Source: Candidatus Undinarchaeota archaeon
GTDB lineage: Archaea > SpSt-1190 > JASMDC01
Assembly (NCBI GenBank): GCA_964519305.1
Contig: CAZFHY010000001.1
Location: forward strand, 96,001-160,000
DNA length: 64,000 bases
Direction of reading: 5' to 3'
Below the pieces are notes generated by a model, which saw nothing but the letters and a program-made list of their open reading frames with translations, ran no database searches and was not told the origin of the DNA. Shown here in pieces: positions 2,494 through 18,628 of the stretch (position 1 is its first letter; each line of letters begins with the position of its first letter). The translations under genes and the position numbers were made by a program.

Positions 2494-3477
2494 ATGAGGC
2501 TCAGGAACAAGGCCAGAGCGGGATGGGCAATACTCAAGGCCCACCTCTTCGGCACCAAGACTCCTGTCTCGGTCGTGCTCATGAGCAACGACTCGTGCAA
2601 CCTCAAGTGCAAATACTGTGCCATCTGGAAGACCAAGCGACGTCAGATGACCACCAAGGAGCTCCTTGACCTCGTGGACGAACTGGCTGACATGGGTTGC
2701 GTTCGCATATCCATCTTCGGTGGCGAACCGCTCGTCCGTGATGACATCGGTCAGATCGTCGACCATATCCATAAGCGCGGTATCAACGTCGGTCTGGGTT
2801 CGAACGGGATCCTCGTTCCCAAGAAGATCGACCAGTTGAAGGATCTGGACCATCTTCATATCAGTCTGGACGGTCCCGAGGACTACCATGATATCCAGCG
2901 CGGAAAGGGGAGCCATGCCTCGGCCATCCGTGCCATCAAGGCCGGGAAGAAGGCAGGTCTCACCGTATGGACTATGACCGTGCTCACCAAGCACAACCTC
3001 CAAGTGGTCGACTACATGCTGGATCTTGCTGACGAGCATGACATGATCGCCTACTTCCATCCGGTCTCTCCGCGGGCAGACTCTGGACCCTATGTAAAGG
3101 ACCTCGTCCCGCCGCTCGATGCATATCGAGCCACGATCGAGCTCATCCTCAAGCGTAAGGCCGAGGGACGGAGGGTGGGTAACTCAACGACTGCCCTGAA
3201 CTACTTCCTGCACTTCCCCAAGCAGACGATGGACTTCAGGTGCTGGGCAGGCAAGCTGTTCTGTCACATCGATGCGAACGGCGATGTGTTCGGGTGCCTG
3301 GAGAACAAGGACAAGTCTCCGCCCAACAACCTCCTTGACAAGGGATTCCGCAAAGCGTGGGACGAGATCACGAGAGGACCATGCCCGGGATGTTGGAGCT
3401 ATTCCACGTCCGACTTCAACTTCCTGTTCTCCCTCGAGCCCCATGTCATCTGGAACACCATCAAGCTGACCCGTTGA
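2494..3477 (+). CDS. Radical SAM protein with Twitch/SPASM-like C-terminus
   Basis: CNLKCKYC, GGEP, ISLDG, CWAGKLFCHIDANGDVFGC...CPGC. Confidence 0.9.
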   Translation: MRLRNKARAGWAILKAHLFGTKTPVSVVLMSNDSCNLKCKYCAIWKTKRRQMTTKELLDLVDELADMGCVRISIFGGEPLVRDDIGQIVDHIHKRGINVGLGSNGILVPKKIDQLKDLDHLHISLDGPEDYHDIQRGKGSHASAIRAIKAGKKAGLTVWTMTVLTKHNLQVVDYMLDLADEHDMIAYFHPVSPRADSGPYVKDLVPPLDAYRATIELILKRKAEGRRVGNSTTALNYFLHFPKQTMDFRCWAGKLFCHIDANGDVFGCLENKDKSPPNNLLDKGFRKAWDEITRGPCPGCWSYSTSDFNFLFSLEPHVIWNTIKLTR

Positions 3478-3491
3478 TATGGCCGGGATGT

Positions 3492-4304
3492 TCATTCCTT
3501 CGTTGCCAGGAGCGAGAACATCAATGGGACGGAGCCCTTCTGTCCTTTGAGCCGCCACCACCCGTCCTCGCCCTCCTCCATGAAGGGGAAGTAGGCGTAG
3601 GTGCACACGGGATGCTCTTCGAGCCGCTTGATCCGAAGGCCGGCACCTGCGAGGGCCGATACCACGTCCCCCAGAGTGTGGGTCCACTCGTACGATGGAC
3701 CGGGTACGGTGATGGACGGATCTGCGTATGAGGGAAGACCGTCCCATCGCACGGGCCCATCGCCGGGGAAATAGGAGCTGGCCACCTCGAGACGGTCCGC
3801 ACCACCTTCGCTGTGGAACGTCGTGAGGAATGGGTGGAAGTCGGCGATGAAGAAGGTACCCCCCGGCTCAAGGGATTGGGCGATAACCTGGGCCCAGCGC
3901 TCGAGGTCCGGCAGCCAGCACAGCACCCCATATGAGGTGAAAACGATGTCGAACGTCCCGTCCAGCACGTCGGGGAGATCATCCACCGCGGCCTGCACGA
4001 ACGTGGCGTCGATACCCTGCTCACTGGCCAGGGAACGCGCCAGCTCGATGGCCTTGCCGGAGATGTCCACGCCCGTCACCGTCGCACCGAGCCGGGCCCA
4101 TGAAAGGGTGTCGAGCCCGAAGTGGCACTGGAGATGGAGAAGACGCTTGCCCTTCACGTTACCCAGCGCCTCGCGCTCGATGCTCCGAAGGGTGCTCTTC
4201 CCCGACCTGAATCCCTCAACGTCGTAATACGCGGACCGGGCGTTGATCGCGACCAGCCCATCCCAGAGCCGCTTATTGGCCTCCAAGGGGGTCTCACTGC
4301 TCAT
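3492..4304 (-). CDS. Class I SAM-dependent methyltransferase
   Basis: LLHLQCHFGLDT, TGVDIS and FDIVFTSYGVLCWLPDL motifs. Confidence 0.9.
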   Translation of the reverse strand: MSSETPLEANKRLWDGLVAINARSAYYDVEGFRSGKSTLRSIEREALGNVKGKRLLHLQCHFGLDTLSWARLGATVTGVDISGKAIELARSLASEQGIDATFVQAAVDDLPDVLDGTFDIVFTSYGVLCWLPDLERWAQVIAQSLEPGGTFFIADFHPFLTTFHSEGGADRLEVASSYFPGDGPVRWDGLPSYADPSITVPGPSYEWTHTLGDVVSALAGAGLRIKRLEEHPVCTYAYFPFMEEGEDGWWRLKGQKGSVPLMFSLLATKE

Positions 4305-4615
4305 CCGGTGACCTCGTCCACCCAGTCAAGATAGGGTTTGTGCCCGGCCTCTATAGGGAGGACCAGCACGCACGGTACATCGTAGGAGTGGAGCTCGACG
4401 ATGCGTGCCATGGCCTTCTCCACCAGGTCCGCACGCGTCTTGGCGAACAGCACGGTCTCGGTGTCGTGCTGGACTGCGCCCTCCCATCGATAGACGGACC
4501 GGACCGGGACCATTGTGACGCAGGCCACGAGCCGTTCCTCCACCAAGGTGGTGGCGATGGCCTCGGCCTCGTTCTCATCAGAAGCGGTGATATAGAGCAT
4601 GCGATACATCGGCAT
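4301..4615 (-). CDS. cutA: Divalent-cation tolerance protein CutA
   Basis: LVEERLVAC, SVYRWEG, HSYDVPC. Confidence 0.95.
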   Translation of the reverse strand: MPMYRMLYITASDENEAEAIATTLVEERLVACVTMVPVRSVYRWEGAVQHDTETVLFAKTRADLVEKAMARIVELHSYDVPCVLVLPIEAGHKPYLDWVDEVTG

Positions 4616-7225: not shown

Positions 7226-7552
7226 ATGCCGAAGTTGACGTGCCCCGCCTGCGGGCACGGGTGCTGGGTGGAATCGAGACTGTTCACCATCGTCAAGTGC
7301 CCTCAGTGCGAGGACCCGTTCGTCGTTAGCGAACGGGATGGAGAGCTCGTGGCCCAACCGGCCTTGTGCACCGGGTGTGGAAAGGACACACACCCGGACC
7401 AACTTTCCCAGAGATGGGACTCAGGGTACGGCTGGGGCCTCTTGTGCCAAGAATGTCAGGAGGAATGGGACCGGGAGTTCCCGACAATGACACTTGAGGG
7501 CGCTGTCGCCCGGTTGCGAGAGGATAACGGGCTACCGAAATGGAGGGCGTGA
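7226..7552 (+). CDS. Small double zinc-ribbon protein
   Basis: Four CxxC pairs (CPAC, CPQC, CTGC, CQEC); TTTAATAT about 25 nt upstream. Confidence 0.65.
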   Translation: MPKLTCPACGHGCWVESRLFTIVKCPQCEDPFVVSERDGELVAQPALCTGCGKDTHPDQLSQRWDSGYGWGLLCQECQEEWDREFPTMTLEGAVARLREDNGLPKWRA

Positions 7553-9876
7553 TGCCCCTGCGCGTTCACCGCGCACGAACGGTCGTGCTCGTCCTCCTCG
7601 TGTTGCTCGGGTGCGGTGCTGCGATCTCAGTGGACGGTACCTCCGAGGAATGGGACCATTCGAAGGCCGTGCAGGACCCTGCTGATGACACGCTCCTGGA
7701 CGTCCCAGGCCTCGACATAAGCTCGTTCTCCGTAGAGGTCGACAACGATACGGTCTACCTGATGGTCGGTACATGGTACCCGCTCCGTTCCGATGACCTC
7801 CTCCTAGAGCTAACTCTGGGGGATATGGTGTTGAACATTGACGGAAAAGGAGCGCGGTGGTGGCGGGACGGGACGGACTACCCGCCGGTCTGGATCGAGG
7901 AGGCCCAGGTGGCCTTCGACGAGGTCATCGAGCTGTCCATCCCTCGCTCGAAGGTACGGGGCGACCCGTTACATATCGAGCGCCTGAACCTCTGGGTCTC
8001 GGGTGACACCAGCGCGGCGGACGTGGCGGATGCCTGTCCCTTGAGTTTCGGAGAGCACCAAATCGCTCCCGTCCTCGCCGGGGTACATCAGGTCGACGGG
8101 CTCGCCAGCGAGTGGGGTGCGCCAATAGCACGTGACAGGGAGGGCGATGCTCCCGGACCGGACAGGGACATCTCTGCGATATACCTCGAGGTAGAGGGGG
8201 AGGACCTACATCTCGCCATGTCCACTGCAGGTGACAGTGTGCCGCTCAACGCCATGTTGGAGCTCACGCTCGGGGACGCAATCCTCAACATCGATCGAGA
8301 GGGAGTGCGTTGGTACGACAAGGGTACCGAGTTCCCGCCGCGGAAGCTCGAGGGGGCCGCGGTCGCCCTCGGCGAGCTGTTCGAGGTGAAGCTACCGATC
8401 GAGCACGTCCTCATAGGTGATGTGGTATACATCGAGCGCCTGAACCTCTGGACGGAGGGGCGTCCTGACGATCAGGGTGATTTCGCTCCATTGGCGTTCA
8501 ACACGACGACCAACACCATAGCCGATCCCGTCGCCTCCCTTTCCGTCGATATAAGACACGGAAAAGGCACCCATCTGGAGGTCAAGCTGACCGTCGAGGG
8601 TGCCGATGGCTTTGTGGACATGGGGTTCTTTCGTGGCACCTGCCCATTCGTCCGGCAACCGGCGGGAGGACGCGCTCGGGGCCGTGGGACATGTGGGTTC
8701 AGGATCACCCTCCCCTCCGCGCCCGTGTATTACACGGTCGACCTTGAGACCATTCAAGGGAGCGATCCGTTCGCACGGCTCGCTAACGATGTATGGGTCA
8801 TCCCGCTAGCGGTGCTGCTACCAGAAGTACGCAACGCCCGGATCTCCGAGGTGTCCCTGCACTTCGACCTACCGGATGGTTGGAACGCCGTTGCACCGAT
8901 GGTCCAGAACGAACCGGGGGTCTTTTTCGCACAGGGATTGCCGTTCACGGAGGTGCGGATGCTACGTGTCCTGCTCGGTCGGTTCGAGCGCTTGGACGAC
9001 AGGATAGAGGATGTGAGCTTCTCCCTCTTCCACGCAGGTATCCCTGCCGAACGCGTCAAGCTGTCCGTGGAGCGTATCAAGCGATACCTCCCCTATTGTC
9101 AGAAGGTGTTCGGTGAGTGGCCGGGTGGTGACCTCTCCGTTGTCGTCATCGGTCCACGCGATCCCTCATCAGGTTTCTGCCACGGGGTGGTCGAAGGTGG
9201 TATGGTGGTCGTCGACGCGCGACAACAGTGCAACGAGGAGGCTCACGAGGTCGTCCATCTCTGGATGATGGGCTCCATCCGCATCGCATCTCTCAAGGAC
9301 CGATGGCTCGGCGAAGGTGTGGCAGAGTACTATGGCCTCAAGACACGGCTGATGACCGATGAGTGGGACGAAGCGAGATTTCTCAGTGAACTGCGCGAGC
9401 GTGCAGCCCAGCCGCCAGGTTGGTACGTGGACCTCGTGAACGCCGGTGAACGGAGCGAGACCGATCCCCAGGCCGTCCAGGCCCTCTATGCAAAAGGTGC
9501 ACTTGCCATCTACCTGCTAGATAAGGAGATGGTCGAAAAGACGGGGGATGTGCGTGGGCTCGACCTCCTCATGCAGCGCCTGTACAATGAGTATGGACGA
9601 ACCGGACGGGCGGTCACGACGAGCGATGTCATCGAAGAGGCATCGTCCATAGTGGGCGAGGACCTAGGGCCGTTCATCCGGGCCCTGCTCGACGGCACAG
9701 CGCCGATCCCGGAAGAGCTAACTCCCTCCCTGGCAGCCGTGAAGGCCGATCCTAGTGACGAGAGGTGCGAGATAGAGCTGGCCCGACTCCAGAGGCGGGA
9801 ACGTTCGCTGCTCGTACTGCTCGCCCTACTCGCAGTATTCGCACTTCGGAGAGGCCGACAGGTGAGCGAGGACTAG
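7540..9876 (+). CDS. Secreted, C-terminally anchored gluzincin metallopeptidase (M1/M61-like) with two tandem N-terminal beta domains
   Basis: Signal peptide; HEVVH plus WLGEGVAEY; YAKGAL; internal duplication (LELTLGD...NID..G.RW...GT.[YF]PP...IERLNLW twice); C-terminal TM. Confidence 0.8.
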   Translation: MEGVMPLRVHRARTVVLVLLVLLGCGAAISVDGTSEEWDHSKAVQDPADDTLLDVPGLDISSFSVEVDNDTVYLMVGTWYPLRSDDLLLELTLGDMVLNIDGKGARWWRDGTDYPPVWIEEAQVAFDEVIELSIPRSKVRGDPLHIERLNLWVSGDTSAADVADACPLSFGEHQIAPVLAGVHQVDGLASEWGAPIARDREGDAPGPDRDISAIYLEVEGEDLHLAMSTAGDSVPLNAMLELTLGDAILNIDREGVRWYDKGTEFPPRKLEGAAVALGELFEVKLPIEHVLIGDVVYIERLNLWTEGRPDDQGDFAPLAFNTTTNTIADPVASLSVDIRHGKGTHLEVKLTVEGADGFVDMGFFRGTCPFVRQPAGGRARGRGTCGFRITLPSAPVYYTVDLETIQGSDPFARLANDVWVIPLAVLLPEVRNARISEVSLHFDLPDGWNAVAPMVQNEPGVFFAQGLPFTEVRMLRVLLGRFERLDDRIEDVSFSLFHAGIPAERVKLSVERIKRYLPYCQKVFGEWPGGDLSVVVIGPRDPSSGFCHGVVEGGMVVVDARQQCNEEAHEVVHLWMMGSIRIASLKDRWLGEGVAEYYGLKTRLMTDEWDEARFLSELRERAAQPPGWYVDLVNAGERSETDPQAVQALYAKGALAIYLLDKEMVEKTGDVRGLDLLMQRLYNEYGRTGRAVTTSDVIEEASSIVGEDLGPFIRALLDGTAPIPEELTPSLAAVKADPSDERCEIELARLQRRERSLLVLLALLAVFALRRGRQVSED

Positions 9877-10796
9877 AGAAGTGTATCGCGGGACACAGGC
9901 GTGCCCTGGACCGGGATGAGCTCGTCCGTACCGAAACGCTCGGCGTATTCGCGCCACACGCCTTCACAGATCAGGTTGTACCTGCACACATGACATTGCG
10001 GCCCCTTACGCTTGTCATCCTCTCTGCGTGACCGCCTGTACTCACGCTCCACACGCCCAGGCTCACGCACCTCGCACGAGGCCATATGCAGCTCGATGGC
10101 CTGTTGCTTATGGTCCGGCATGAGACAGTAGGGTATGGCTTCATAGAAGGCAGGGATCCCCGCAGAGGTGGTCACGTCCAGGGCCTCGGCCACGTACCTG
10201 GCCGCCTGGGATATGACTGGGACTATGGTGTCCGCTTCGACTTCAGCGTTGCCCATGGGATGGACGAAGTCGAACTGCATGGAGTCCGGCCCGAATTCGA
10301 TAAGGAACCTCGCGATGTCAGGGAGCACTGCATAGTTCGGTTTCGCGACCACCGTATTGGTGATGACGGTCAGCGGGGCATCGCACACGTTACGCAGCCC
10401 CGCGATGGCCTGGTCAAAAGCGCCCGGCGATTTGGTGAGGTGATCATGGAGCGCGGCCACGTGCCCATGGACGGCCGGTACAACCTGGGTGAGGCCCGCG
10501 GCAACAAGGTCGTTCACGAGGTCACGATAACTGAGCATCCGGGCATTCGTCTGGAGCTGGACATCGCGATAGCCTAGACGATGCGCCATGGTGATTATGT
10601 CGACAAGTTTGGGGTCAAGGGTGGGCTCGCCACCCGTGATCACGAGGAAGTCGGCACCATCAGCTCGACCTGCGCGAAGGTCACCCTCAACATCTGTTAG
10701 GTTCTTGGACCTGCGGCCCCGCTTGTCAGCTACAGCACAGAAGCGGCAGTTATTGTTACAGCTGTAGCCCAATTTTAGGTCTAAACGATGCACCAT
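9873..10796 (-). CDS. HxsC-like radical SAM protein (paralog 1)
   Basis: LDLKLGYSCNNNCRFC, TGGEPT, QTN, PYC, CHVCRYNLICEGVWREY..FG; directly downstream of the HxS-repeat peptide. Confidence 0.85.
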   Translation of the reverse strand: MVHRLDLKLGYSCNNNCRFCAVADKRGRRSKNLTDVEGDLRAGRADGADFLVITGGEPTLDPKLVDIITMAHRLGYRDVQLQTNARMLSYRDLVNDLVAAGLTQVVPAVHGHVAALHDHLTKSPGAFDQAIAGLRNVCDAPLTVITNTVVAKPNYAVLPDIARFLIEFGPDSMQFDFVHPMGNAEVEADTIVPVISQAARYVAEALDVTTSAGIPAFYEAIPYCLMPDHKQQAIELHMASCEVREPGRVEREYRRSRREDDKRKGPQCHVCRYNLICEGVWREYAERFGTDELIPVQGTPVSRDTLL

Positions 10797-10821: not shown

Positions 10822-11160
10822 TTAATGGCTGTTGCAGTGAGACCCGTGCGAGGTATGGCTGTCGTGGTTCGAGTGGGCAGGGTCGTAGTGGGAGTGCACA
10901 GCCTTTATGGTCGAACCGGAGTAGTGGATTCCCGCAGCGCTCTGAGAGTGATCGTACGGGTTGTTGGTATGCGACGCATGTGAACTGTGGCTGCCATGGC
11001 TCGTATGCCAACTTGTCGCTGGTTTGGCTATGAGGCTGGAGAACGCATAGCCCGACAGGATGGCCCCCATGGAAAACAGATTTCTCTTTGTGATCCTGCC
11101 CTCCTCCTCTACGAGGAAGGACTTGATGCTTTTCTGAATCTTTGGTAGTGTCTTTGTCAT
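10822..11160 (-). CDS. hxsA: His-Xaa-Ser repeat precursor peptide (HxsA-like)
   Basis: HTSHGSHSSHASHTN and HSNHDSHTSHGSHCNSH blocks after a basic/hydrophobic leader; GGAGTGA SD upstream. Confidence 0.88.
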   Translation of the reverse strand: MTKTLPKIQKSIKSFLVEEEGRITKRNLFSMGAILSGYAFSSLIAKPATSWHTSHGSHSSHASHTNNPYDHSQSAAGIHYSGSTIKAVHSHYDPAHSNHDSHTSHGSHCNSH

Positions 11161-11165
11161 CGTTG

Positions 11166-11223
11166 ATCACTCCAGCTAGTACTCACTCTCTGTTACATAC
11201 TATAGATTAGCTAGCTTATAAAC
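11166..11223 (-). promoter_or_regulatory. Own TATA box and SD for hxsA
   Basis: Minus-strand TTTATAAG at about 11223-11216; GGAGTGAT at 11173-11166. Confidence 0.55.
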
Positions 11224-11256: not shown

Positions 11257-12684
11257 TTAGTCAAGCGTTCTCGCCCATTCGAGAAGGATCGAGCGGTCCT
11301 TTGGATCCACGATGATTTTATGGAATAGGTGCTCAACGAGCCCGCCCCGTATCGCGCATTCCTTATCCATGGGGAGCTTGGACACCAGATTCCCTTGGGA
11401 ACCATAGGTGCAAACGGCACACGAGCCGCAATAGGGGTGCCAGATACAGGTGTCGCACATGGTGCATACATGGGATGTCAGCCCCACGAGGTGTTGGACC
11501 TGAGGTGAGGTGAACACTCCCTTGTAAGTATCATCCCGCACATTGCCGATGCGGAATATATCGAAGGAACGTGATTCATCACATGCGTAGATATCGCCGT
11601 CCTGGGTATAGGCCACCTGGTTGAGGGCCGCACCGCAGGGTGAACCGAAGCACGTGTACGTAGAGGCTTTCAAGCACAGGATCTTACGCAGAACGATCGT
11701 GGCCATGTTCTCATGCATGCGCACGCCCTGTCGGTTGAGGTCGATTATGTACTCGAGCGTGTCCTTGTAGAAGCGCATGAACTCGTCGGCGGAGTAGCCC
11801 ACCTCTTTCCATCGCTCGGCTGCGAACCCTGCGTCATTGAGCTGGCGGATCCGGATGTTGGGGAAGCCCCATTTCACGTACTCGTCGACGATCTCCTTTC
11901 CGTACGAAAGGGAGTGCTTCGAGATGGTCGGAAGAGCTGAGAGGCCTACATGCTTGATGTTGCGGATGCGGTTGATCCAGTAGGTGACATTCTCGTATGA
12001 ACCAGCGCCACCAAAGTACCGTCGGTTCGCGTCGTGGACCTCCTCGGGCCCGTCCAGTGATGTGCAAAGGCCGAACCTGTTGGAGGCAAGATAGTCGAGC
12101 TTGTCGTCCGTCATCAGGGAGAGGTTGGTGACCATGAGGAAGGTCATCCGCTTCTTCTTGAGATGGGCCTGGTCCTTGGCGTACTCGGTTATGTAGTGGA
12201 CCATGTCGAACGCCGCCAGAGGCTCACCCCCCTGGAACTCGAGTGTAAGGTCCCGGCCAGGAGACTGCATGATGAAGTCCACCGTAGCACGGGCGGTCTC
12301 CTCGTCCATGTCCACGCCTGTCGTATCCATGGGGCGGGATTTCGCATGACAATAGACACAGGTGAAGTTGCACCGCAGGGTGGGGACCACTATGTGGAGC
12401 ACGACGCCACGGTCGAGGTGGGCGAAGCGACTGCGATATTGCTCTGCCAGTCCGTCCATGTCATCTTCATGCACCATGACACCGATACCACGGAGCGTGA
12501 GCATCAGGTTCGGGTCCTCGGTGATGCGGCCTAGTCGAAGGAGATCGTACTCACGCTTGGTAAGAACCGCCCACGAACCATGATCCGCGGTGATCAGGTA
12601 CTTGTCCTTCGCCAAACGCTTCGTCTGATAGCGGTTGATGAGGTGCGGTCCCTCGCTGAGTCCCTCAAAGAAGGTCTCTACCAT
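11257..12684 (-). CDS. hxsB: His-Xaa-Ser system radical SAM maturase HxsB (SPASM)
   Basis: LHIVVPTLRCNFTCVYCHA, EFQGGEPL, SLDGP..HD.NR, SPCGAALNQVAY..DGDIYACDESR, CDTCIWHPYCGSCAVC. Confidence 0.9.
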   Translation of the reverse strand: MVETFFEGLSEGPHLINRYQTKRLAKDKYLITADHGSWAVLTKREYDLLRLGRITEDPNLMLTLRGIGVMVHEDDMDGLAEQYRSRFAHLDRGVVLHIVVPTLRCNFTCVYCHAKSRPMDTTGVDMDEETARATVDFIMQSPGRDLTLEFQGGEPLAAFDMVHYITEYAKDQAHLKKKRMTFLMVTNLSLMTDDKLDYLASNRFGLCTSLDGPEEVHDANRRYFGGAGSYENVTYWINRIRNIKHVGLSALPTISKHSLSYGKEIVDEYVKWGFPNIRIRQLNDAGFAAERWKEVGYSADEFMRFYKDTLEYIIDLNRQGVRMHENMATIVLRKILCLKASTYTCFGSPCGAALNQVAYTQDGDIYACDESRSFDIFRIGNVRDDTYKGVFTSPQVQHLVGLTSHVCTMCDTCIWHPYCGSCAVCTYGSQGNLVSKLPMDKECAIRGGLVEHLFHKIIVDPKDRSILLEWARTLD

Positions 12685-12688
12685 GCAT

Positions 12689-12931
12689 CTACGCCTTCAT
12701 GATGCCGAGCACGTAGTTCAGGAACTCATAACCGAGCTGGTTGATCCTGATCTTCTTGCTCCGTGGAGTGAGGGTCACTCGCACGAGGCCTTCAGCATCT
12801 CCATCAACGTACACCCAGCAGGTCTCGAGATAGGCCTGGGAGGCCTGCATTACCGCGTCCATCGGATAGAAACGGGTATCAAGGTCGAGCACGACGGTCC
12901 TGAGATCCTTATCGACAGTGACGATCTTCAT
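12689..12931 (-). CDS. hxsD: HxsD-like small protein (copy 2)
   Basis: LDTRFYPMDAVMQASQAYL...EFLNYVL pattern; directly upstream of hxsB. Confidence 0.75.
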   Translation of the reverse strand: MKIVTVDKDLRTVVLDLDTRFYPMDAVMQASQAYLETCWVYVDGDAEGLVRVTLTPRSKKIRINQLGYEFLNYVLGIMKA

Positions 12932-12934
12932 GCG

Positions 12935-13420
12935 CTACTCCTCCGTTCCGCTCCAGGGCTTGGCGATCCCTTCAGGATCATCCCTGTACGAGGAGTCTCC
13001 CTCTGATGGAGGGCACCCGCACGGATCGGCGCCGGAGTCGGCGCTCTCGCTGGTCAGGAATGCGCGGCGCACGATGGCGTCCCGCACGTCCTGGTTCCGC
13101 GCTGTCTGGATCGTGTAGACCGCGTAGTTGATGAGCTCGTTGTTGAACTCTCTACCGAGCTTCTCGAGGCTCTCCCGCTTGCTCTTCGGCCGGATCTCCA
13201 CAAGGACCTCTTCCTGCGGATCACCGCCGAGGATCAGGTACGCCCTGTCCATGAGGACATAGGCTGCTGAGTAGATGATCTGGAGCGGATAGATCCGGGG
13301 ATTCACGGATACGAGTATATACCCCTCCTTTTTGTGAATCTCGAGATTATTGATCACGCTAAAACCCTCGTTCGGGTCTTTCTTCGATTCTGGTTTTTTC
13401 TTCGTCGCACGCTTAGCCAT
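12935..13420 (-). CDS. hxsD: HxsD-like protein (copy 1) with C-terminal extension (start refined to MAKRAT)
   Basis: VNPRIYPLQIIYSAAYVLMDRAY...REFNNELINY...RDAIVRRAF; tail DDPEGIAKPW. Confidence 0.8.
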   Translation of the reverse strand: MAKRATKKKPESKKDPNEGFSVINNLEIHKKEGYILVSVNPRIYPLQIIYSAAYVLMDRAYLILGGDPQEEVLVEIRPKSKRESLEKLGREFNNELINYAVYTIQTARNQDVRDAIVRRAFLTSESADSGADPCGCPPSEGDSSYRDDPEGIAKPWSGTEE

Positions 13421-13440
13421 GGAACGCACCCCGGAAGGCC

Positions 13441-13483
13441 GGAAGGCCTTGCAAAGCTTTAATAGTTTGCGCTCGGCCTTTCC
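13441..13483. promoter_or_regulatory. Bidirectional promoter with dyad symmetry between the two arms of the hxs locus
   Basis: GGAAGGCC..GCAAA-GCTTTAATAG-TTTGC..GGCCTTTCC; TATA-like on both strands (TTTAATA on +, TATTAAA on -). Confidence 0.55.
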
Positions 13484-13530
13484 CATTGCCTGCTCTTCCT
13501 ATGCTGGCCTCTCGTTTGGATGTTTTGGCG

Positions 13531-14463
13531 ATGGGGATCAAGAGACTTGATTTGAAGGTTGGATTCGCCTGTAACAACAACTGCCGGTTCTGTGTCGTCG
13601 CCGACAAGCGGAGGCTCGGGAACCTGAGCACAGGACAGCTCAAGGAGAACATCGTTAACGGCGCCCGCTCGGGTGCCAAGGAGATCGTCTTCACTGGTGG
13701 TGAGGTCACCCTCCGCAAGGACCTTCTGGAACTCATCCGGTTCGCCAAGAACCAAGGTTTCACAAGGCTCCAGCTCCAGTCGAACTGTAGGATGCTGTTC
13801 TACAAGGATTTCATCCACAAGCTCCTTGACGCCGGTATCAATGAGTTCTCCCCTTCGATCCATGGATCGACCCCCGAGGTGCATGATGGTCTAGTTCGCG
13901 CTCCCGGCGCATACAAGCAGACGCTGGGCGCCATCCGTAACCTCGTCGACATGGACCTCCGAGTACTCACGAACACGGTCATCACACGTCAGAACTACGA
14001 GCAGCTGCCCCAGATTGCCCAGATACTCATCGATATCGGTGTCATGCAGTACCAGTTCGCCTTCGTACATGCGGAGGGGAACGCCTACAAGTACTTTGAC
14101 GAGATAGTCCCCCGGAAGTCGGTGATACAGCCCTATGTCCACAAGGGCGTGGATCTGGGAGCGGAGTCCGGTACATCGATGATGGTAGAGGCCTACCCGT
14201 TCTGCTTCATGGTGGATCGGGAGCAGTACTGCTCTGAGCTATTCATCCCCGAGACCGAGGTCCGCGAGGCCGATCGCGTTCTTGAGAACTTCAGTGATGT
14301 CCGTCGGAACGTCGCCAAGCTCAAAGGCCCGGACTGTCCTCGATGCAGATACTACCCTATCTGCGAAGGACCATGGAAGGAGTATCCCGAGAAATTCGGA
14401 TGGGAAGAGTTCGTGCCAGTGCCCGGTCAGCCCATCACCGATCGGCTAGAACTGCTCCACTGA
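13531..14463 (+). CDS. HxsC-like radical SAM protein (paralog 2; start refined to MGIKRLDL)
   Basis: LDLKVGFACNNNCRFC, FTGGE, YPFC, CPRCRYYPICEGPWKEY..FG. Confidence 0.88.
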   Translation: MGIKRLDLKVGFACNNNCRFCVVADKRRLGNLSTGQLKENIVNGARSGAKEIVFTGGEVTLRKDLLELIRFAKNQGFTRLQLQSNCRMLFYKDFIHKLLDAGINEFSPSIHGSTPEVHDGLVRAPGAYKQTLGAIRNLVDMDLRVLTNTVITRQNYEQLPQIAQILIDIGVMQYQFAFVHAEGNAYKYFDEIVPRKSVIQPYVHKGVDLGAESGTSMMVEAYPFCFMVDREQYCSELFIPETEVREADRVLENFSDVRRNVAKLKGPDCPRCRYYPICEGPWKEYPEKFGWEEFVPVPGQPITDRLELLH

Positions 14464-14472
14464 GGGGCCATC

Positions 14473-15441
14473 ATGGCGACCCACCTTTTACGGCTAGGCC
14501 ATTCCTGTGACCACGCATGCCGCTATTGCACCGTGGCGGACGATCCCGATCCAGAGCTCTCCCGGGAGGATGCGCTGGCCCGCGTCGATGCAGTGCCCAA
14601 GGGCGAGGGATTGACCATCACCGGTGGAGAACCTACTCTGCACCCCGACCTACTGGAGATAGTCCGGCGGGCGAAGGAGCGGGGACTCTTCCCCGTTGAC
14701 CTCCAGACGCACGGAGCGCACCTGTGCGATGCATCCCTGGTGGAGCGTCTACAGGAAGCGGGGCTCGATATAGCCCTTGTGTCCGTACCGTCACATGAGA
14801 AGAAGGTCTATCACGAGCTCACCGGCAAGGACGACCTTGACAAAGTACTGGCCGGTATCAGCGCGCTCCTGGAGGTCGGTATCGAGACGAACATAGACCA
14901 CGTCATCACAGCACGCACTTACCGTTCCCTCCCGGACTTCGTAGACGTCATCGGCAAGCGATTCCCGGGGGTCAACCGTATCCTCCTTGGGATGGTGCGG
15001 CCCAATGGAGCATGCGCCCGGCATCCCGAGCTGGTTCCCCGTCTGGTAGAGCTGGAACCTTTCCTGTATGATGCGCTGGACCGCCTTCGGAACAGGCGCG
15101 CGTACTACGAGGTGGAAGGTGTGCCCTTGTGCTATCTTCAGGGATACGAGCATCATAACGCTGAGACGCAGCGCGCCCTTGACGCCCCTGTTTCCTACGC
15201 TGGAGGTAAGCGGCGGCGCGATATCCACGGATTCGTGCATTCCCAGTTGAAACGCAAAGCGGCCGTATGTGAGCGCTGCCTTCTGGACCCGCTCTGTGTA
15301 GGGGTGTGGGTGGAGTATGCCCAGCTCAACGGGACGAACGAACTGTTCCCGGTGTTCACTCCACCGGACCGTGTGCGTGAACGGATGGAACGGTACTATC
15401 AGCGATGGAGGGAGGAGTATCGTAGACGTAGGTCTAGGTAA
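14473..15441 (+). CDS. HxsC-like radical SAM protein (paralog 3)
   Basis: CDHACRYC, TGGEPT, VPLC, CERCLLDPLCVGVWVEY. Confidence 0.85.
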   Translation: MATHLLRLGHSCDHACRYCTVADDPDPELSREDALARVDAVPKGEGLTITGGEPTLHPDLLEIVRRAKERGLFPVDLQTHGAHLCDASLVERLQEAGLDIALVSVPSHEKKVYHELTGKDDLDKVLAGISALLEVGIETNIDHVITARTYRSLPDFVDVIGKRFPGVNRILLGMVRPNGACARHPELVPRLVELEPFLYDALDRLRNRRAYYEVEGVPLCYLQGYEHHNAETQRALDAPVSYAGGKRRRDIHGFVHSQLKRKAAVCERCLLDPLCVGVWVEYAQLNGTNELFPVFTPPDRVRERMERYYQRWREEYRRRRSR

Positions 15442-16258
15442 CGCATGCAACAACTCGTGCGTCATGTGCACTTCCATCATGCCGCCTCCTAAGGACGTGG
15501 ATCCCACCACCGAGCAGATCAAAGCCCATATCAATGGGCTCGATGAGCCGGACATCATCATCTTCACCGGCGGCGAACCGACCCTCCGCCCCGACCTCGA
15601 GGAACTCGTCCGATATGTACGCCAGCGGTTCCCGGACACTCCGTTCAGGCTCCTCACGAACGGTCGGATGTTCTCCTATCGTGACTACACAGAAAGGATG
15701 GTATCGGCTGGAGTCGATGACGTCGAAGTATCGCTCTGCGGACCCTCCGCCGAGGTGCACGATGCAGTGACCCGCGCACCAGGCTCTTTCATCCAGTCGC
15801 TCGAAGGCATCCGGAACCTCGTGTCGGCAGGAGTGCATACGAACGTGCGCTACGTGCTCCATGAGCTCACCTACAAGAGCGTGGTCGACGTCCCGGACCT
15901 TCTGGACAGGGAAGCGCCGGGCATAGGGCAGCTGGTCGTCATGTATATGGACATAATCGGTAACGCCCTGCGCCACCGGAAGCAGCTCATCGTCCCGTAC
16001 AGGGATGTCGCACCCTACGTGGAGCGCACCGCTGATGTCGCTGTCGAACGGGGGATATCACTGGCCTTGTACCATATACCGTCCTGTGTCATCGCCCCTG
16101 CCTACCGTCATCTCTCAGCGGGCGTCACCGTCATCGAGCGACGCATCACCTATCCACCCCAATGCGAGCGATGTACCGTCCGAAGCTCGTGCTGTGGTGT
16201 GTGGAAGACCTATACCAAGGACGTGGGCGTAGATGAGTTCGTCCCGGTCATCGAATGA
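15377..16258 (+). CDS. hxsC: HxsC-like radical SAM protein (paralog 4; start uncertain, GTG at 15371 or 15377)
   Basis: CNNSCVMC, FTGGEPT, LLTNGRMF, IPSCV, CERCTVRSSCCGVWKTY. Confidence 0.85.
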   Translation: MNGWNGTISDGGRSIVDVGLGNACNNSCVMCTSIMPPPKDVDPTTEQIKAHINGLDEPDIIIFTGGEPTLRPDLEELVRYVRQRFPDTPFRLLTNGRMFSYRDYTERMVSAGVDDVEVSLCGPSAEVHDAVTRAPGSFIQSLEGIRNLVSAGVHTNVRYVLHELTYKSVVDVPDLLDREAPGIGQLVVMYMDIIGNALRHRKQLIVPYRDVAPYVERTADVAVERGISLALYHIPSCVIAPAYRHLSAGVTVIERRITYPPQCERCTVRSSCCGVWKTYTKDVGVDEFVPVIE

Positions 16259-16270
16259 TATGACCGCTGT

Positions 16271-18628
16271 CTAGAGGCCCTCATCACCGAATATGTCCGC
16301 ATCCTCTTCTTCCTTGTCGGATGAGGTCTCGTCAGCGGTTTCCTTCGTCCCCTCATCCCCCGCCCCGGGGGCTGCCGGGTAGCGGCCTGCCGACGGGTAG
16401 CGGCCCGCGTAGGCGTCCTTTGGACCGGCCTCTTTATCCCCTCGGTGGTAATGGGCCGGTCGCGCCATCTTGGCACGAGCGTAGTAGCCCGCTTCCTCCT
16501 CCGAGCTCTCGTCCTTGAAGTGGTCCACCAACTCGCTGATTAGTCCGGTGATCATCTCCTTCTTCTCACCGAACACGGTCACATAGATCACACCAAGCCC
16601 CAGGTCCATGCGCACCCAGATGCCCAGGAACTTCTTGGAGTAGGCGCCCATCCCCGAGTAGATCAGGTCCACGGATCGCTTCTCCTTGTTCACCAGCTGC
16701 TTGACCGTGTGGATGCCTGAGAACCGCTCCGCGATACGCTTGATCGCCTCCTTGGGAGGGATGGTGAGCTCGATGGTCTGCTGGTTCGACTCAAGCTCGG
16801 TGATCCTCTTCTTGAACGTTATGGTGTCCATCGGCACACCTACGAGGAACGGACACACGCTCCCCACGTTTATTGGATCGAACTCCTCCATCTTACGCTC
16901 TCCGCGGTTGTCATGGTAGACGACAGTACCACCGATCTTGGCGTTAACGCACCGGTGTGGGATGAGCAGGAAGATGGCCGACTGGAACTCATCCGGTTTG
17001 ATGGCCCCTAGAGAGATTAGCTTCGAGCCGTGCTCCACCTCGAAGGCCTCCGGTACGTCGAGGTTCACATCCACGTCGGTTATGGAGAAGGTGGAATGGT
17101 TATGTACCTTGATGCCGATCTTGATGTGGTTACCCTCACGTGTGACACCCCGCATGATATCGACCTCCTCGTGACCGATCACACGCTTCTTGGCGAACTG
17201 GAGGCCTAGGTAGATAATACCCATGAGACCGAATATGTCGATCCACTCAGTAACGGCATCGAGCATGTTCAGGTCGAGCTTCTCCTCCATGTTACCGATC
17301 TCCACCTCGGCAAGGTTCATGTCGCTCTGGGCCTTGCATTCCTTCATGATGGTCTCGATCTTCGTCATGGAGGCGTTGAACCGTAAGGCGTCGTCGTCAG
17401 TGACGCGGAACATCACTCGCCAGACACTGCTCTTGAGGTTCGTGTCGTACATCTGGAGAACGTTGTAATACCGGTCCTTCAGCTCGACCGGTACGGTGCA
17501 GTCCTCCGAGGAGATGAGCTTGCGAACGGCTTCCAGCTCGTCAGGATTGCTGGCCACCTCGGTGGAATTACCATAGAAGAGCCTGACGTTCTTGAGCACG
17601 GGTGTGCAGAACCCATCCGAGGAGAAGAGGGCCTTGTACTGTATCCAGCGGTCGCCGATGTGGAGGCTGTTCACCCCGGAGGGCGATATCGTGTAGTGGT
17701 CTGTATTCTTATCGGGACCGAGCCACGTCGCATCCTCCAGCTCTATCTCGGTACGCGCGCTCCGGGTCTGGAGATTGATCGTGCACGGTGAGGGCGTATC
17801 CTTATCCCACGAAATCGTGGTGTAGACCGCGTCGGGCATCCCAGTATCGAACGGAGGTGACAGGAGCGTTCCCTGATTGATCCGCTTCATCTGCTTTCCA
17901 CTTGCGATATGTAAGGTCTTCATATAGAGCTTCGCAGGTCGCTCACGGGTACCGGTAGTAGATATCCTGATCGAGTTGACCTGGCTGCCGCTTTGCGTCC
18001 CCCGCAGTGCGTCACCGTGGGAAAGGAGTCGGATACCATCGCGGTAGACATTGAAGCTGGCCGAGACACCGACGAACATGATTCGCCATGTATGGTAGTT
18101 CTCCGTATCGGTCTTGCCCTCCCACTGACGGAAGCGCCGGTCCTGATTGTCAACCATGTCGATACCACTTCCATGGAACACGAAGCATGGACCACGGACC
18201 ACGGCATGGACGCAGATCCTCAGACCGCCCTGTTCTTCCATCCTGAACGTGGTCTCCAGGGTCCAATCGCTCTTGTCGGGTATGGACTCTGACCTGACGA
18301 TCATCGGATTTACCTTATCATTGCCATCATAGATGAACAATGTACCAGGTGGATCGACATCGATCACGGCCTTGACGTCATGCTGGTTCCGCTCCCATCC
18401 ATCCAGTGAAGGCCAGTTCGTGGAAAAAATGTTCCAGAGGGGGGTTTCGAAGTCAAGACGCACGGAGCCGTCAGGACCGGGAGTTGTCACATTGGAACGC
18501 GTGGTCAACAGGAAGTCATCGAGTGTATCAGTGTTCCAGATCCTGCCGGAGGCCATGGTGAGGGCTAGGAATAGAACGAGCACGATCCATCGTGCAGGGA
18601 GCCTGCTCGGGAGAATTCCCTCTACCAC
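16271..18628 (-). CDS. Single-pass membrane protein: extracellular beta-sandwich/lectin-like region, helical stalk, TM, conserved cytoplasmic Ig-like plus alpha/beta domain
   Basis: Signal peptide; YHTWRI lectin-like strand; TM IFGLMGIIYLGL; C-terminal domain is homologous to that of ORF 49854-51203. Confidence 0.75.
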   Translation of the reverse strand: MVEGILPSRLPARWIVLVLFLALTMASGRIWNTDTLDDFLLTTRSNVTTPGPDGSVRLDFETPLWNIFSTNWPSLDGWERNQHDVKAVIDVDPPGTLFIYDGNDKVNPMIVRSESIPDKSDWTLETTFRMEEQGGLRICVHAVVRGPCFVFHGSGIDMVDNQDRRFRQWEGKTDTENYHTWRIMFVGVSASFNVYRDGIRLLSHGDALRGTQSGSQVNSIRISTTGTRERPAKLYMKTLHIASGKQMKRINQGTLLSPPFDTGMPDAVYTTISWDKDTPSPCTINLQTRSARTEIELEDATWLGPDKNTDHYTISPSGVNSLHIGDRWIQYKALFSSDGFCTPVLKNVRLFYGNSTEVASNPDELEAVRKLISSEDCTVPVELKDRYYNVLQMYDTNLKSSVWRVMFRVTDDDALRFNASMTKIETIMKECKAQSDMNLAEVEIGNMEEKLDLNMLDAVTEWIDIFGLMGIIYLGLQFAKKRVIGHEEVDIMRGVTREGNHIKIGIKVHNHSTFSITDVDVNLDVPEAFEVEHGSKLISLGAIKPDEFQSAIFLLIPHRCVNAKIGGTVVYHDNRGERKMEEFDPINVGSVCPFLVGVPMDTITFKKRITELESNQQTIELTIPPKEAIKRIAERFSGIHTVKQLVNKEKRSVDLIYSGMGAYSKKFLGIWVRMDLGLGVIYVTVFGEKKEMITGLISELVDHFKDESSEEEAGYYARAKMARPAHYHRGDKEAGPKDAYAGRYPSAGRYPAAPGAGDEGTKETADETSSDKEEEDADIFGDEGL

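Follow-up and report, generated by a model that had tools for sequence, protein, structure and literature searches.

A gene at 10822..11160 (-) of a 64,000-nucleotide stretch of DNA from a Candidatus Undinarchaeota archaeon (GenBank assembly GCA_964519305.1, contig CAZFHY010000001.1, positions 96,001 to 160,000 of the forward strand; the whole stretch is called the window here) encodes a 112-residue protein of the His-Xaa-Ser (Hxs) system, in which radical S-adenosylmethionine (SAM) enzymes mature a substrate named HxsA. With moderate confidence we read this protein as an HxsA-type substrate whose leader has two parts and would be cut after residue G21 by an A24 (prepilin-type) peptidase, the core being exported. 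This reading builds on the gene and its family, a conserved leader motif, the surrounding gene cluster, and the synteny and clade of the A24 peptidases of related systems, all of which were established here.

The precursor gene and its repeat blocks

The open reading frame (ORF), whose span includes the stop codon, begins with a leader of 50 residues, followed by W51 and a first repeat block of five Hx[S/N] units, H52-N66 (HTS HGS HSS HAS HTN; 10963..11007, (-)). A spacer of 29 residues (67-95; 10876..10962, (-)), which carries PYDH, HYS and HSHY and ends in HSHYDPA(H), invariant in the archaeal subgroup, separates it from a second block, H96-H112 (HSN HDS HTS HGS HCN SH; 10825..10875, (-)), which consists of five Hx[S/N] units plus SH, reaches the stop codon and contains the sole cysteine, C109 (codon 10834-10836, (-)). 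This layout agrees exactly with the two (Hx[S/N])5 cores and the spacer of about 30 residues with His and Tyr that the original prediction, made from this DNA alone, had described. Past residue 50 the protein holds 15 His, 3 Asp, 1 Lys, 1 Cys and no Arg. Tandem Hx[SN] runs of at least three units were searched for in all six frames of the whole genome (3,634,172 bases in 42 contigs, 59.6% G+C), and the only two found were the blocks of the precursor, indicating that the repeats are not due to chance. No second copy of the precursor was found in the genome.

In NCBIfam the only match of the precursor was HxsA3 (NF038309; 49.8 bits, E 2.2e-13, below the cut-off of 65), with residues 5-73 aligned on profile positions 2-68 of 81; there was no match to TIGR03979 or to HxsA4 (NF038313, cut-off 55) at E <= 0.01. 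Pfam revealed no domain in the precursor and hence no peptidoglycan-binding domain. In eight close variants (85-100% identical) the differences within the core were confined to the x or third positions of the triplets, and the His residues, the spacer and C109 were unchanged. The end of the hxsB gene, which lies upstream, is 96 nt from the precursor, and this interval contains a TATA-like TTTATAA (11216-11222, (-)) and a Shine-Dalgarno-like GGAGTGATC (11165-11173, (-)) placed 4 nt ahead of the ATG, which resemble an archaeal promoter and ribosome-binding site and may be dedicated to the precursor. Together, the HxsA3 match, the homologs, the profile matches described below and these upstream signals argue from sequence that the gene is real. 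Its sequence is carried by 12 DNA sequencing runs from three marine or seawater studies, and no RNA run was listed.

Conservation of the leader

A profile made from 14 homologs retrieved, out of 1.84 billion searched, 899 cluster representatives with E <= 0.001, of which 263 had E <= 1e-10, and among the matches listed all aligned to the profile from their own N-terminus. The architecture of the family, FPxIxKSIxxFLxEEEG followed by a basic stretch, a hydrophobic region (h-region) and HxS repeats, is present in the window precursor. Its conserved motif spans residues 5-27 (11080..11148, (-)) and reads LPKIQKSIKSFLVEEEG up to the proposed cut and RITKRN after it; this part would be cytoplasmic. 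The h-region comprises residues 28-45 (11026..11079, (-)) and is followed by the c-region KPATSW, residues 46-51 (11008..11025, (-)), with a candidate signal-peptidase site ATS/W.

P6, E19 and G21 were invariant in the 14-sequence alignment. Of 160 family proteins, 132 contain the strict motif [FLIYMV][LIMFV]x[DE]3G; inspection by eye showed the others to be 18 variants that kept the Gly and 10 with Ala in its place, so that the position of G21 is Gly in 150 and Ala in 10; the residue preceding it (E20 in the window) is acidic in nearly all. The expectation that the FLxxEEG element would be conserved among homologs was thus borne out. Among 133 sequences the Gly is followed by N (101), I (123), P/T/S, R (98), any residue and K (112), and then by about 18 hydrophobic residues, the signal reaching about 53 residues in total. 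Just before the first His the family has mostly [FY]-A-[AGK], with FAA, FAG and FAK the commonest, and the window TSW; ATS/W stands in for the usual [AV]-x-A. The best 15-residue Kyte-Doolittle mean of the window h-region, 1.48, is the lowest of the family (mean 2.39, standard deviation 0.29, n=133), and the h-regions of other archaeal members likewise lie at the low end of hydrophobicity.

All ten bacterial-type proteins passed the HxsA3 cut-off (87.8-114.9 bits) and none of seven archaeal-type representatives did (31.9-49.8 bits); five of the latter seven matched HxsA4, at 27-40 bits and under the cut-off of 55. Judged by such profile scores, the window precursor is a member of an archaeal branch to which the curated models do not extend.

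A24 prepilin peptidases linked to the Hxs system

The linkage of A24 peptidases to the precursor was analyzed in 44 loci obtained by a metagenome search with bacterial HxsA3 sequences. These revealed a recurrent bacterial operon with genes for HxsD, HxsD_rel, an A24-like protein (329-354 residues), a radical SAM protein (366-374 residues), HxsB, a MORN-repeat protein and HxsA3. Among the 19 bacterial loci in which the sequence extends 4.8 kb or more beyond the precursor on its upstream side, 17 had an A24-like ORF; the remaining two are arranged differently, hxsD following the precursor, and they run out within about 1.3 kb. In archaea, where ten loci had the region upstream of hxsD available, the ORF directly upstream of hxsD was A24-like in seven (L003, L004, L006 and L013-L016), the loci of the sister family included. 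Both catalytic Asp motifs were invariant in all 13 Hxs-linked A24 proteins. Of the five DPANN-type genomes searched, four have no more than two A24 genes, and one of the two is inside the Hxs cluster; the L005 genome has three, none in the cluster.

The window genome encodes an A24 protein of 389 residues with both Asp motifs kept, at C5:1400-2569 and unlinked to the Hxs cluster. In a maximum-likelihood tree of 23 A24 proteins a split with support of 98/94 joined the 13 Hxs-linked proteins, this protein and a paralog from the L005 genome, the tree being midpoint-rooted only and the group therefore a split rather than a proven clade; within it, the window protein joined the Hxs-linked A24s of Micrarchaeota at 100/100.

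The leader of the precursor fits the class III rule with G21 (11098-11100, (-)) as the proposed -1 residue and the charged E20 at -2. A class III prepilin-like site, one of two alternatives offered in the original prediction, thus gained support from Gly or Ala at -1 in 160 of 160 proteins, from A24 genes in most related operons and from the member of the A24 group in the genome. A Flp-type site, in which G is followed by xxxxEY, was rejected by eye, the residues at +5 and +6 being R and N. The rules for archaeal pilins given in a review (PMC4371748) are G, A or S at -1, a charged residue that is needed or matters at -2, and a site placed before the H-domain; the Hxs leader fits the first two and departs from the third by six residues.

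HxsB, HxsD and possible recognition of the leader

HxsB (11257..12684, (-)) is a radical SAM/SPASM maturase (TIGR03978, 424.7 bits, cut-off 370). Its structural model (mean predicted local distance difference test score 76.5) has strands at residues 19-25, 28-33 and 38-42 and helices at 43-50, 58-67 and 73-86, ahead of the radical SAM core. Three strands followed by three helices is the topology of the recognition elements (RREs) of ribosomally synthesized and post-translationally modified peptides (RiPPs), and by this predicted structure the N-terminal region 19-86 is RRE-like. Foldseek aligned the whole model with CteB (5why; 469-471 columns, E 1.1e-18) and also matched it to leader-bound ChlB and precursor-bound SuiB; CteB was also the best sequence match of HxsB in the PDB (5wgg, E 8.2e-26). 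The leader motif may therefore double as a recognition motif for the RRE-like domain of HxsB, a role for FLxxEEG that had also been suggested earlier and that fits the predicted domain.

The core of HxsD was folded with high confidence as a small two-layer sandwich. In a wide structure comparison its best match (Z 7.7) was a pterin dehydratase-like two-layer sandwich, within the common range, and the structure searches revealed no RRE in HxsD and no fold that was clearly of the secretion-chaperone type.

The next-best NCBIfam matches of HxsB are thioether-forming maturases, including PapB and QhpD. A C109-D93 thioether made by HxsB on the PapB/QhpD analogy was left as speculation, bacterial HxsA3 proteins such as P0006 having no Cys; by analogy, a thioether link at the Cys of the archaeal precursors is conceivable.

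A proposed two-part leader and the alternative of plain secretion

From the motif, the cluster and the A24 peptidases we infer a course of events, from binding by HxsB and the place of the cut to the route of export, the chemistry and the function. The first part of the leader, residues 5-21 (PKIxKSIxSFLxEEEG), would stay in the cytoplasm, where the maturation enzymes, most likely through the RRE-like domain of HxsB, would hold it while HxsB and four HxsC-like enzymes, aided by two HxsD-like proteins, would modify the His-rich core. The second part, the basic stretch and the hydrophobic segment, would insert into the membrane with the N-terminus inside and take the core outside. A dedicated A24 aspartyl protease, in the window genome presumably the one encoded at C5:1400-2569 away from the cluster, would cleave behind G21, on the N-terminal side of the hydrophobic segment, in the manner of class III signal peptides, and the product would either stay anchored in the membrane or be freed by a second cut just before W51/H52.

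Several results weigh against cleavage by an A24 protease. Pfam PF01478 matched seven of 11 bacterial A24-like ORFs over the cut-off and two below it, two gave no match, and hmmscan with Pfam found none for the A24-like ORF of L003. The clusters of the window, of L002 from the same genus and of L005 contain no A24 gene, and action in trans is deduced from a midpoint-rooted tree; our own A24 profile was seeded with the copies of the window genome, whose scores with it follow by construction. Six polar or basic residues, RITKRN (NI[PTS]RxK in the family), lie between G21 and the hydrophobic segment. A classical class III signal has its H-domain beginning at +1, and known archaeal sites have Lys or Arg at -2, where the Hxs leader is acidic. 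The conserved [AV]-x-A before the first His fits signal peptidase I, with which an A24 cut would not be needed for release. The HxsD model gave no Foldseek match at E <= 0.001 and no RRE, and we found no published measurement of modification, cleavage, export or metal binding for HxsA3-type proteins. In addition, the HXS system of Escherichia coli as described is made up of four genes, none of them for an A24, and HxsA there carries a plain predicted signal peptide of 22 residues (PMC13128918).

The same features can be explained by plain secretion, in which the motif would serve only for docking of the maturases, an ordinary Sec signal would be cut solely by signal peptidase I before the first His, and the A24 proteins would serve another purpose. 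The conserved [AV]-x-A in a signal of about 53 residues and the lack of an A24 gene in the window cluster agree with this, as do the Sec signals of bufferins, RiPP precursors cut at a signal-peptidase site (PMC11626156), and the predicted signal peptide of E. coli HxsA (PMC13128918). On the other hand, A24 genes that form a group of their own lie within the operon in 17/19 bacterial and 7/10 archaeal loci, and four of five tiny DPANN genomes keep two A24s with one in the Hxs cluster. Docking alone does not account for the strict Gly or Ala at the position of G21, and the window precursor has ATSW instead of an A-x-A site. We consider plain secretion unlikely and retain the two-part leader with A24 cleavage as the preferred reading.

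The Tat question

The original prediction had also seen in TKRNLF a signal of twin-arginine translocation (Tat) type with KR in place of RR. According to this view the peptide would be cross-linked in the cytoplasm and exported folded through a KR variant of the signal. The window has T-K-R-N-L-F, with K25-R26 and no RR, at the twin-arginine position, whereas TatFind requires RR. In the family (n=133) RR occurred once and KR or RK five times, three of these being the window and two close relatives, and a basic-x-basic pattern was present in 93 of the 133; usually this is R-x-K, with strongly hydrophobic h-regions behind it. A gene for TatC (170.7 bits, C3:148502-149146) was found in the window genome, and TatC also occurs in the genome of the same genus; none was found in four DPANN genomes holding homologs, of which that of L004 is labelled complete. 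The precursors of these TatC-less relatives read KE, KQ or KN where the window has KR, which speaks for Tat in the window lineage, as do the Lys in the c-region and the h-region, the least hydrophobic of the 133 and similar to those, rich in Ala, Gly and Ser, that candidate RR signals of the genome possess (the latter from a crude scan with many false positives, and illustrative). However, these candidate substrates carry RR, and low hydrophobicity is a trait of the subgroup, since archaeal relatives without TatC share it. As a feature of the family the Tat proposal is therefore not supported. In the window lineage, where KR, TatC and the weak h-region coincide, Tat is a minority possibility, and export by this route seems to us quite improbable.

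The Hxs gene cluster

The precursor is surrounded by genes of the Hxs system. Upstream of it, after hxsB, lie genes for an HxsD-like small protein, HxsD_rel (12689..12931, (-); NF038315, 43.2 bits, cut-off 41), and for HxsD (12935..13486, (-); TIGR03976, 48.5 bits, cut-off 50), which has its conserved domain at about residues 42-146 and an uncertain start codon. Four genes encode HxsC-like radical SAM paralogs. Paralog 1 (9873..10796, (-)) scored 181 bits with HxsC4 (cut-off 500) and 91.1 bits with HxsC, below both cut-offs; paralog 2 (13486..14463, (+)) scored 177.1 bits with HxsC4 against the same cut-off, and paralog 3 (14473..15441, (+)) 74.3 bits with HxsC4 and 66 bits with HxsC. Paralog 4 (15317..16258, (+); start codon uncertain) is the nearest to canonical HxsC, and its 177.8 bits against the cut-off of 267.9 (TIGR03977), the best of the four, place these proteins as related to the curated HxsC family yet outside it. 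Both Cys motifs, CxxxCxxC and the C-terminal CxxCx5C, are intact in all four (at residues 13 and 268 in paralog 1). With HxsB and HxsD_rel over their cut-offs and the HxsD and HxsC-like genes adjoining, the earlier assignment of the precursor to an Hxs radical SAM system holds.

Two proteins of about 780 residues, each with an N-terminal hydrophobic segment, flank the cluster (7540-9876, (+), and 16271-18628, (-)). They have no NCBIfam match, are 81-84% identical to their counterparts in L002 and are conserved in the same genus only; the first has an HExxH motif and a weak M1 peptidase match (16.8 bits). These large membrane proteins were rejected as parts of the system, being absent from the DPANN loci. 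At 6-8 kb from the cluster lie a stand-alone radical SAM gene (327 residues; 2494-3477, (+)) and a gene for the divalent-ion tolerance protein CutA1 (4301-4615, (-)).

HxsC paralogs and possible function of the core

The window and the Micrarchaeota locus L004 have three HxsC subtypes in common by best BLAST hits. L004 encodes five HxsC-like proteins and a further SPASM enzyme, and its precursor has one long block. Paralog number therefore does not follow block number, and the suggestion that different paralogs act on different blocks had to be abandoned; a difference between the paralogs in the chemistry performed or the residue targeted is more likely.

The product exported would be an array of 62 residues with 15 His, which at seawater pH would most likely be a multivalent metal-binding surface peptide; the main alternative is an antiviral barrier like E. 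coli HxsA. In E. coli, HxsA is matured by HxsB, HxsC and HxsD, of which HxsC binds to HxsD, and it has to arrive in the periplasm in matured form; a change of +8 Da maps to one HxS repeat, every repeat is needed for defence, and the repeats, enriched in basic residues, are proposed to capture incoming phage DNA electrostatically (PMC13128918). A similar function in the archaeon, with the matured peptide lying under the surface layer and blocking the entry of viral DNA, is suggested by the E. coli system as the only relative studied and by the same core enzyme families in the window. The core of the window precursor, however, contains no Arg and 1 Lys, whereas the E. coli model relies on positive charge (PMC13128918); there is no peptidoglycan-binding domain by Pfam and no TIGR03979 match, no defence genes were recognisable among the neighbours, and the system is conserved across a tiny-genome archaeal family instead of being scattered. 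We regard the E. coli-like function as rather doubtful. Metal binding ranks slightly above the antiviral barrier, because of the few basic residues, the lack of a wall-binding domain and the retention of the system across the tiny-genome family. Bufferins provide a precedent for exported metal-binding RiPPs with signal peptides of the general pathway (PMC11626156).

A wider proposal, more tentative than the two-part leader itself, is that the HxsA3/HxsA4-type systems, the archaeal one of the window among them, form an undescribed class of surface proteins in which a RiPP-style recognition leader is fused to a class III signal. Once radical SAM enzymes have modified the His-rich core in the cytoplasm, removal of the leader by a dedicated A24 protease at the membrane would gate export. 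Since DPANN archaea retain such systems even in genomes of 0.6-1.2 Mb, they would serve a core need of the cells, such as metal capture or host contact, and not an optional defence.

Related loci and distribution

A locus search, with a six-sequence alignment as query and one genome per species, found seven loci: one from the same genus (L002), three from Micrarchaeota, one from an unclassified archaeon, one from Aenigmatarchaeota and one labelled Campylobacterales. L002 was 87.4% identical in DNA across 15 kb with the gene order unchanged. The order HxsD, HxsD_rel, HxsB, precursor was found again in L003-L005, where all four were detected; HxsD was not detected in L002 nor either small protein in L006, and L008 begins at HxsD_rel. 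HxsB was whole in six loci (L002-L006 and L008), all over the cut-off at 378-418 bits. HxsB-like genes were found in both genomes of the genus of the window and in eight of ten of a sister family with genomes of 0.6-0.9 Mb, indicating that the distribution is lineage-wide and not patchy; none was found in five genomes of two other families of the same class, and 44 further archaeal genomes gave four weaker matches.

A set of 5.8 billion proteins contained 13 precursor homologs. Common to the archaeal precursors are the leader, an HSHYDPAH that closely precedes the final repeat block, and Cys within or behind this block. The columns of HSHYDPAH (H89-H96) were invariant in the archaeal subgroup alignment and the same motif is present in the precursors of L003-L008; the His and Ser of block 2 were invariant in the 14-sequence alignment. 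In every archaeal precursor read (window, L003-L008, L013 and L016), one or two Cys residues occur within the last HxS block or immediately behind it. Block 1 is restricted to the genus of the window, the DPANN relatives carrying two AH-x-x units instead.

L008, a 2.8-kb contig recorded as a Campylobacterales bacterium, shares 88.6% DNA identity with the archaeal L005 over 2.1 kb and 87.7% with L007 from Aenigmatarchaeota. Its presence in a bacterial metagenome-assembled genome is probably a binning error, the contig itself being archaeal. The window genome is of 3.63 Mb (99.8% complete, 4.3% contamination) and its sole congener of 3.8 Mb, whereas all other genomes sampled from the class have 0.6-1.2 Mb, so that either it is exceptionally large for a lineage of small genomes or it has been misplaced.

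Other genes accompany some of these loci. In the Micrarchaeota locus L003 (L003:1466-2937), the A24-HxsD-HxsB-precursor block is closely preceded by two genes for KaiC-like ATPases (PF06745) and one for a protein of about 730 residues with no Pfam match; ORFs at L004:1828-3305 and L006:1907-3393 are alike by size and position alone. KaiC-like ATPases occur in archaellum operons. Downstream of the precursor some DPANN loci carry genes for membrane proteases (L003:11535-12530 and L006:10340-10900), with matches to Rce1-like CPBP protease (40.5 bits) and M50B-like protease (20.4 bits, weak and below the cut-off). In bacterial HxsA3 operons (L024, L027, L028, L031 and L038) a gene for a MORN-repeat protein of 259-460 residues separates hxsB from the precursor gene, which in some cases is also followed by another; the archaeal clusters have none.

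Comparison with known systems

The Hxs system was predicted in 2011 by Haft and Basu (as cited in PMC9062424), and its first function, a block to phage DNA entry in E. coli, was described in 2026 (PMC13128918); the HXS survey in that work covered bacteria, and archaea are unmentioned in its text. In full-text searches, which were not exhaustive, no publication on HxsA3, HxsA4, HxsC4, HxsD_rel or archaeal Hxs systems was found; among the papers listed, judged by title or abstract, only the HXS study itself, as preprint and journal article, dealt with the system beyond incidental mentions. A full-text search, likewise not exhaustive, found no publication that links His-Xaa-Ser systems with prepilin peptidases. 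The system and the HxsA3/A4 models are already known; what the window adds to them is an archaeal branch having four HxsC paralogs and two copies of the repeat block. The much larger HxsA3-type family was found to have a prepilin-type protease in the operon together with a matching G/A site in the leader. If cleavage at this site is true, it would be a new way to couple peptide modification with export, and it would give a testable answer to how N-terminal processing is tied to maturation, left open for E. coli (PMC13128918).

Compared with the canonical HXS system of Pseudomonadota (HxsD-HxsB-HxsC-HxsA, TIGR03976-03979; Li et al., Nat Commun 2026, PMC13128918), the window shares HxsB-type SPASM and HxsC-type radical SAM enzymes, a small HxsD-like protein and a substrate with at least five His-x-Ser units (ten in the window) and an N-terminal export signal, and the order of cytoplasmic maturation followed by export resembles the route proposed here. 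In contrast, the leader of the window precursor has 50 residues with a conserved acidic motif instead of a signal peptide of 22, the precursor has no TIGR03979 match and no peptidoglycan-binding domain, four HxsC-like and two HxsD-like genes replace one of each, the repeats are without basic residues, and the host is an archaeon. With the variant families of NCBIfam there are these points in common: the leader aligns with HxsA3, HxsD_rel is over its cut-off and two HxsC paralogs best match HxsC4 (NF038332). Nevertheless the window falls below the cut-offs for HxsA3 (49.8 vs 65) and HxsC4 (181 vs 500), and the archaeal subgroup has its own core motif, HSHYDPAH, with Cys in or after the last block.

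Among the maturases, CteB (5wgg/5why), which forms the thioethers of six cysteines in forty-five residues (SCIFF) peptides, resembles HxsB in its full-length fold, the N-terminal domain included, but identity in the fold alignment is about 19% and the two enzymes have different substrates. Bufferins share with the Hxs precursor a long precursor, cytoplasmic modification and a general-pathway N-terminal signal with no dedicated transporter, and a metal role is plausible for Hxs; they differ in relying on oxidative enzymes that depend on multinuclear non-haem iron (MNIO enzymes) instead of radical SAM enzymes, in having Cys instead of His/Ser targets and in belonging to unrelated protein families, metal binding having been shown for bufferins only (PMC11626156). 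With class III signals, finally, the Hxs leader shares Gly or Ala at -1, a charged -2 residue, a proposed cut before the hydrophobic segment and, in the operons of relatives, a dedicated A24 aspartyl protease with both Asp motifs. It differs in its acidic -2 residue, in the six polar or basic residues found from the Gly to the hydrophobic segment, and in the conserved stretch of 20 residues N-terminal to the Gly; cleavage is a prediction, and among the genes of the window cluster none was recognised as coding for a pilus assembly ATPase or platform protein.

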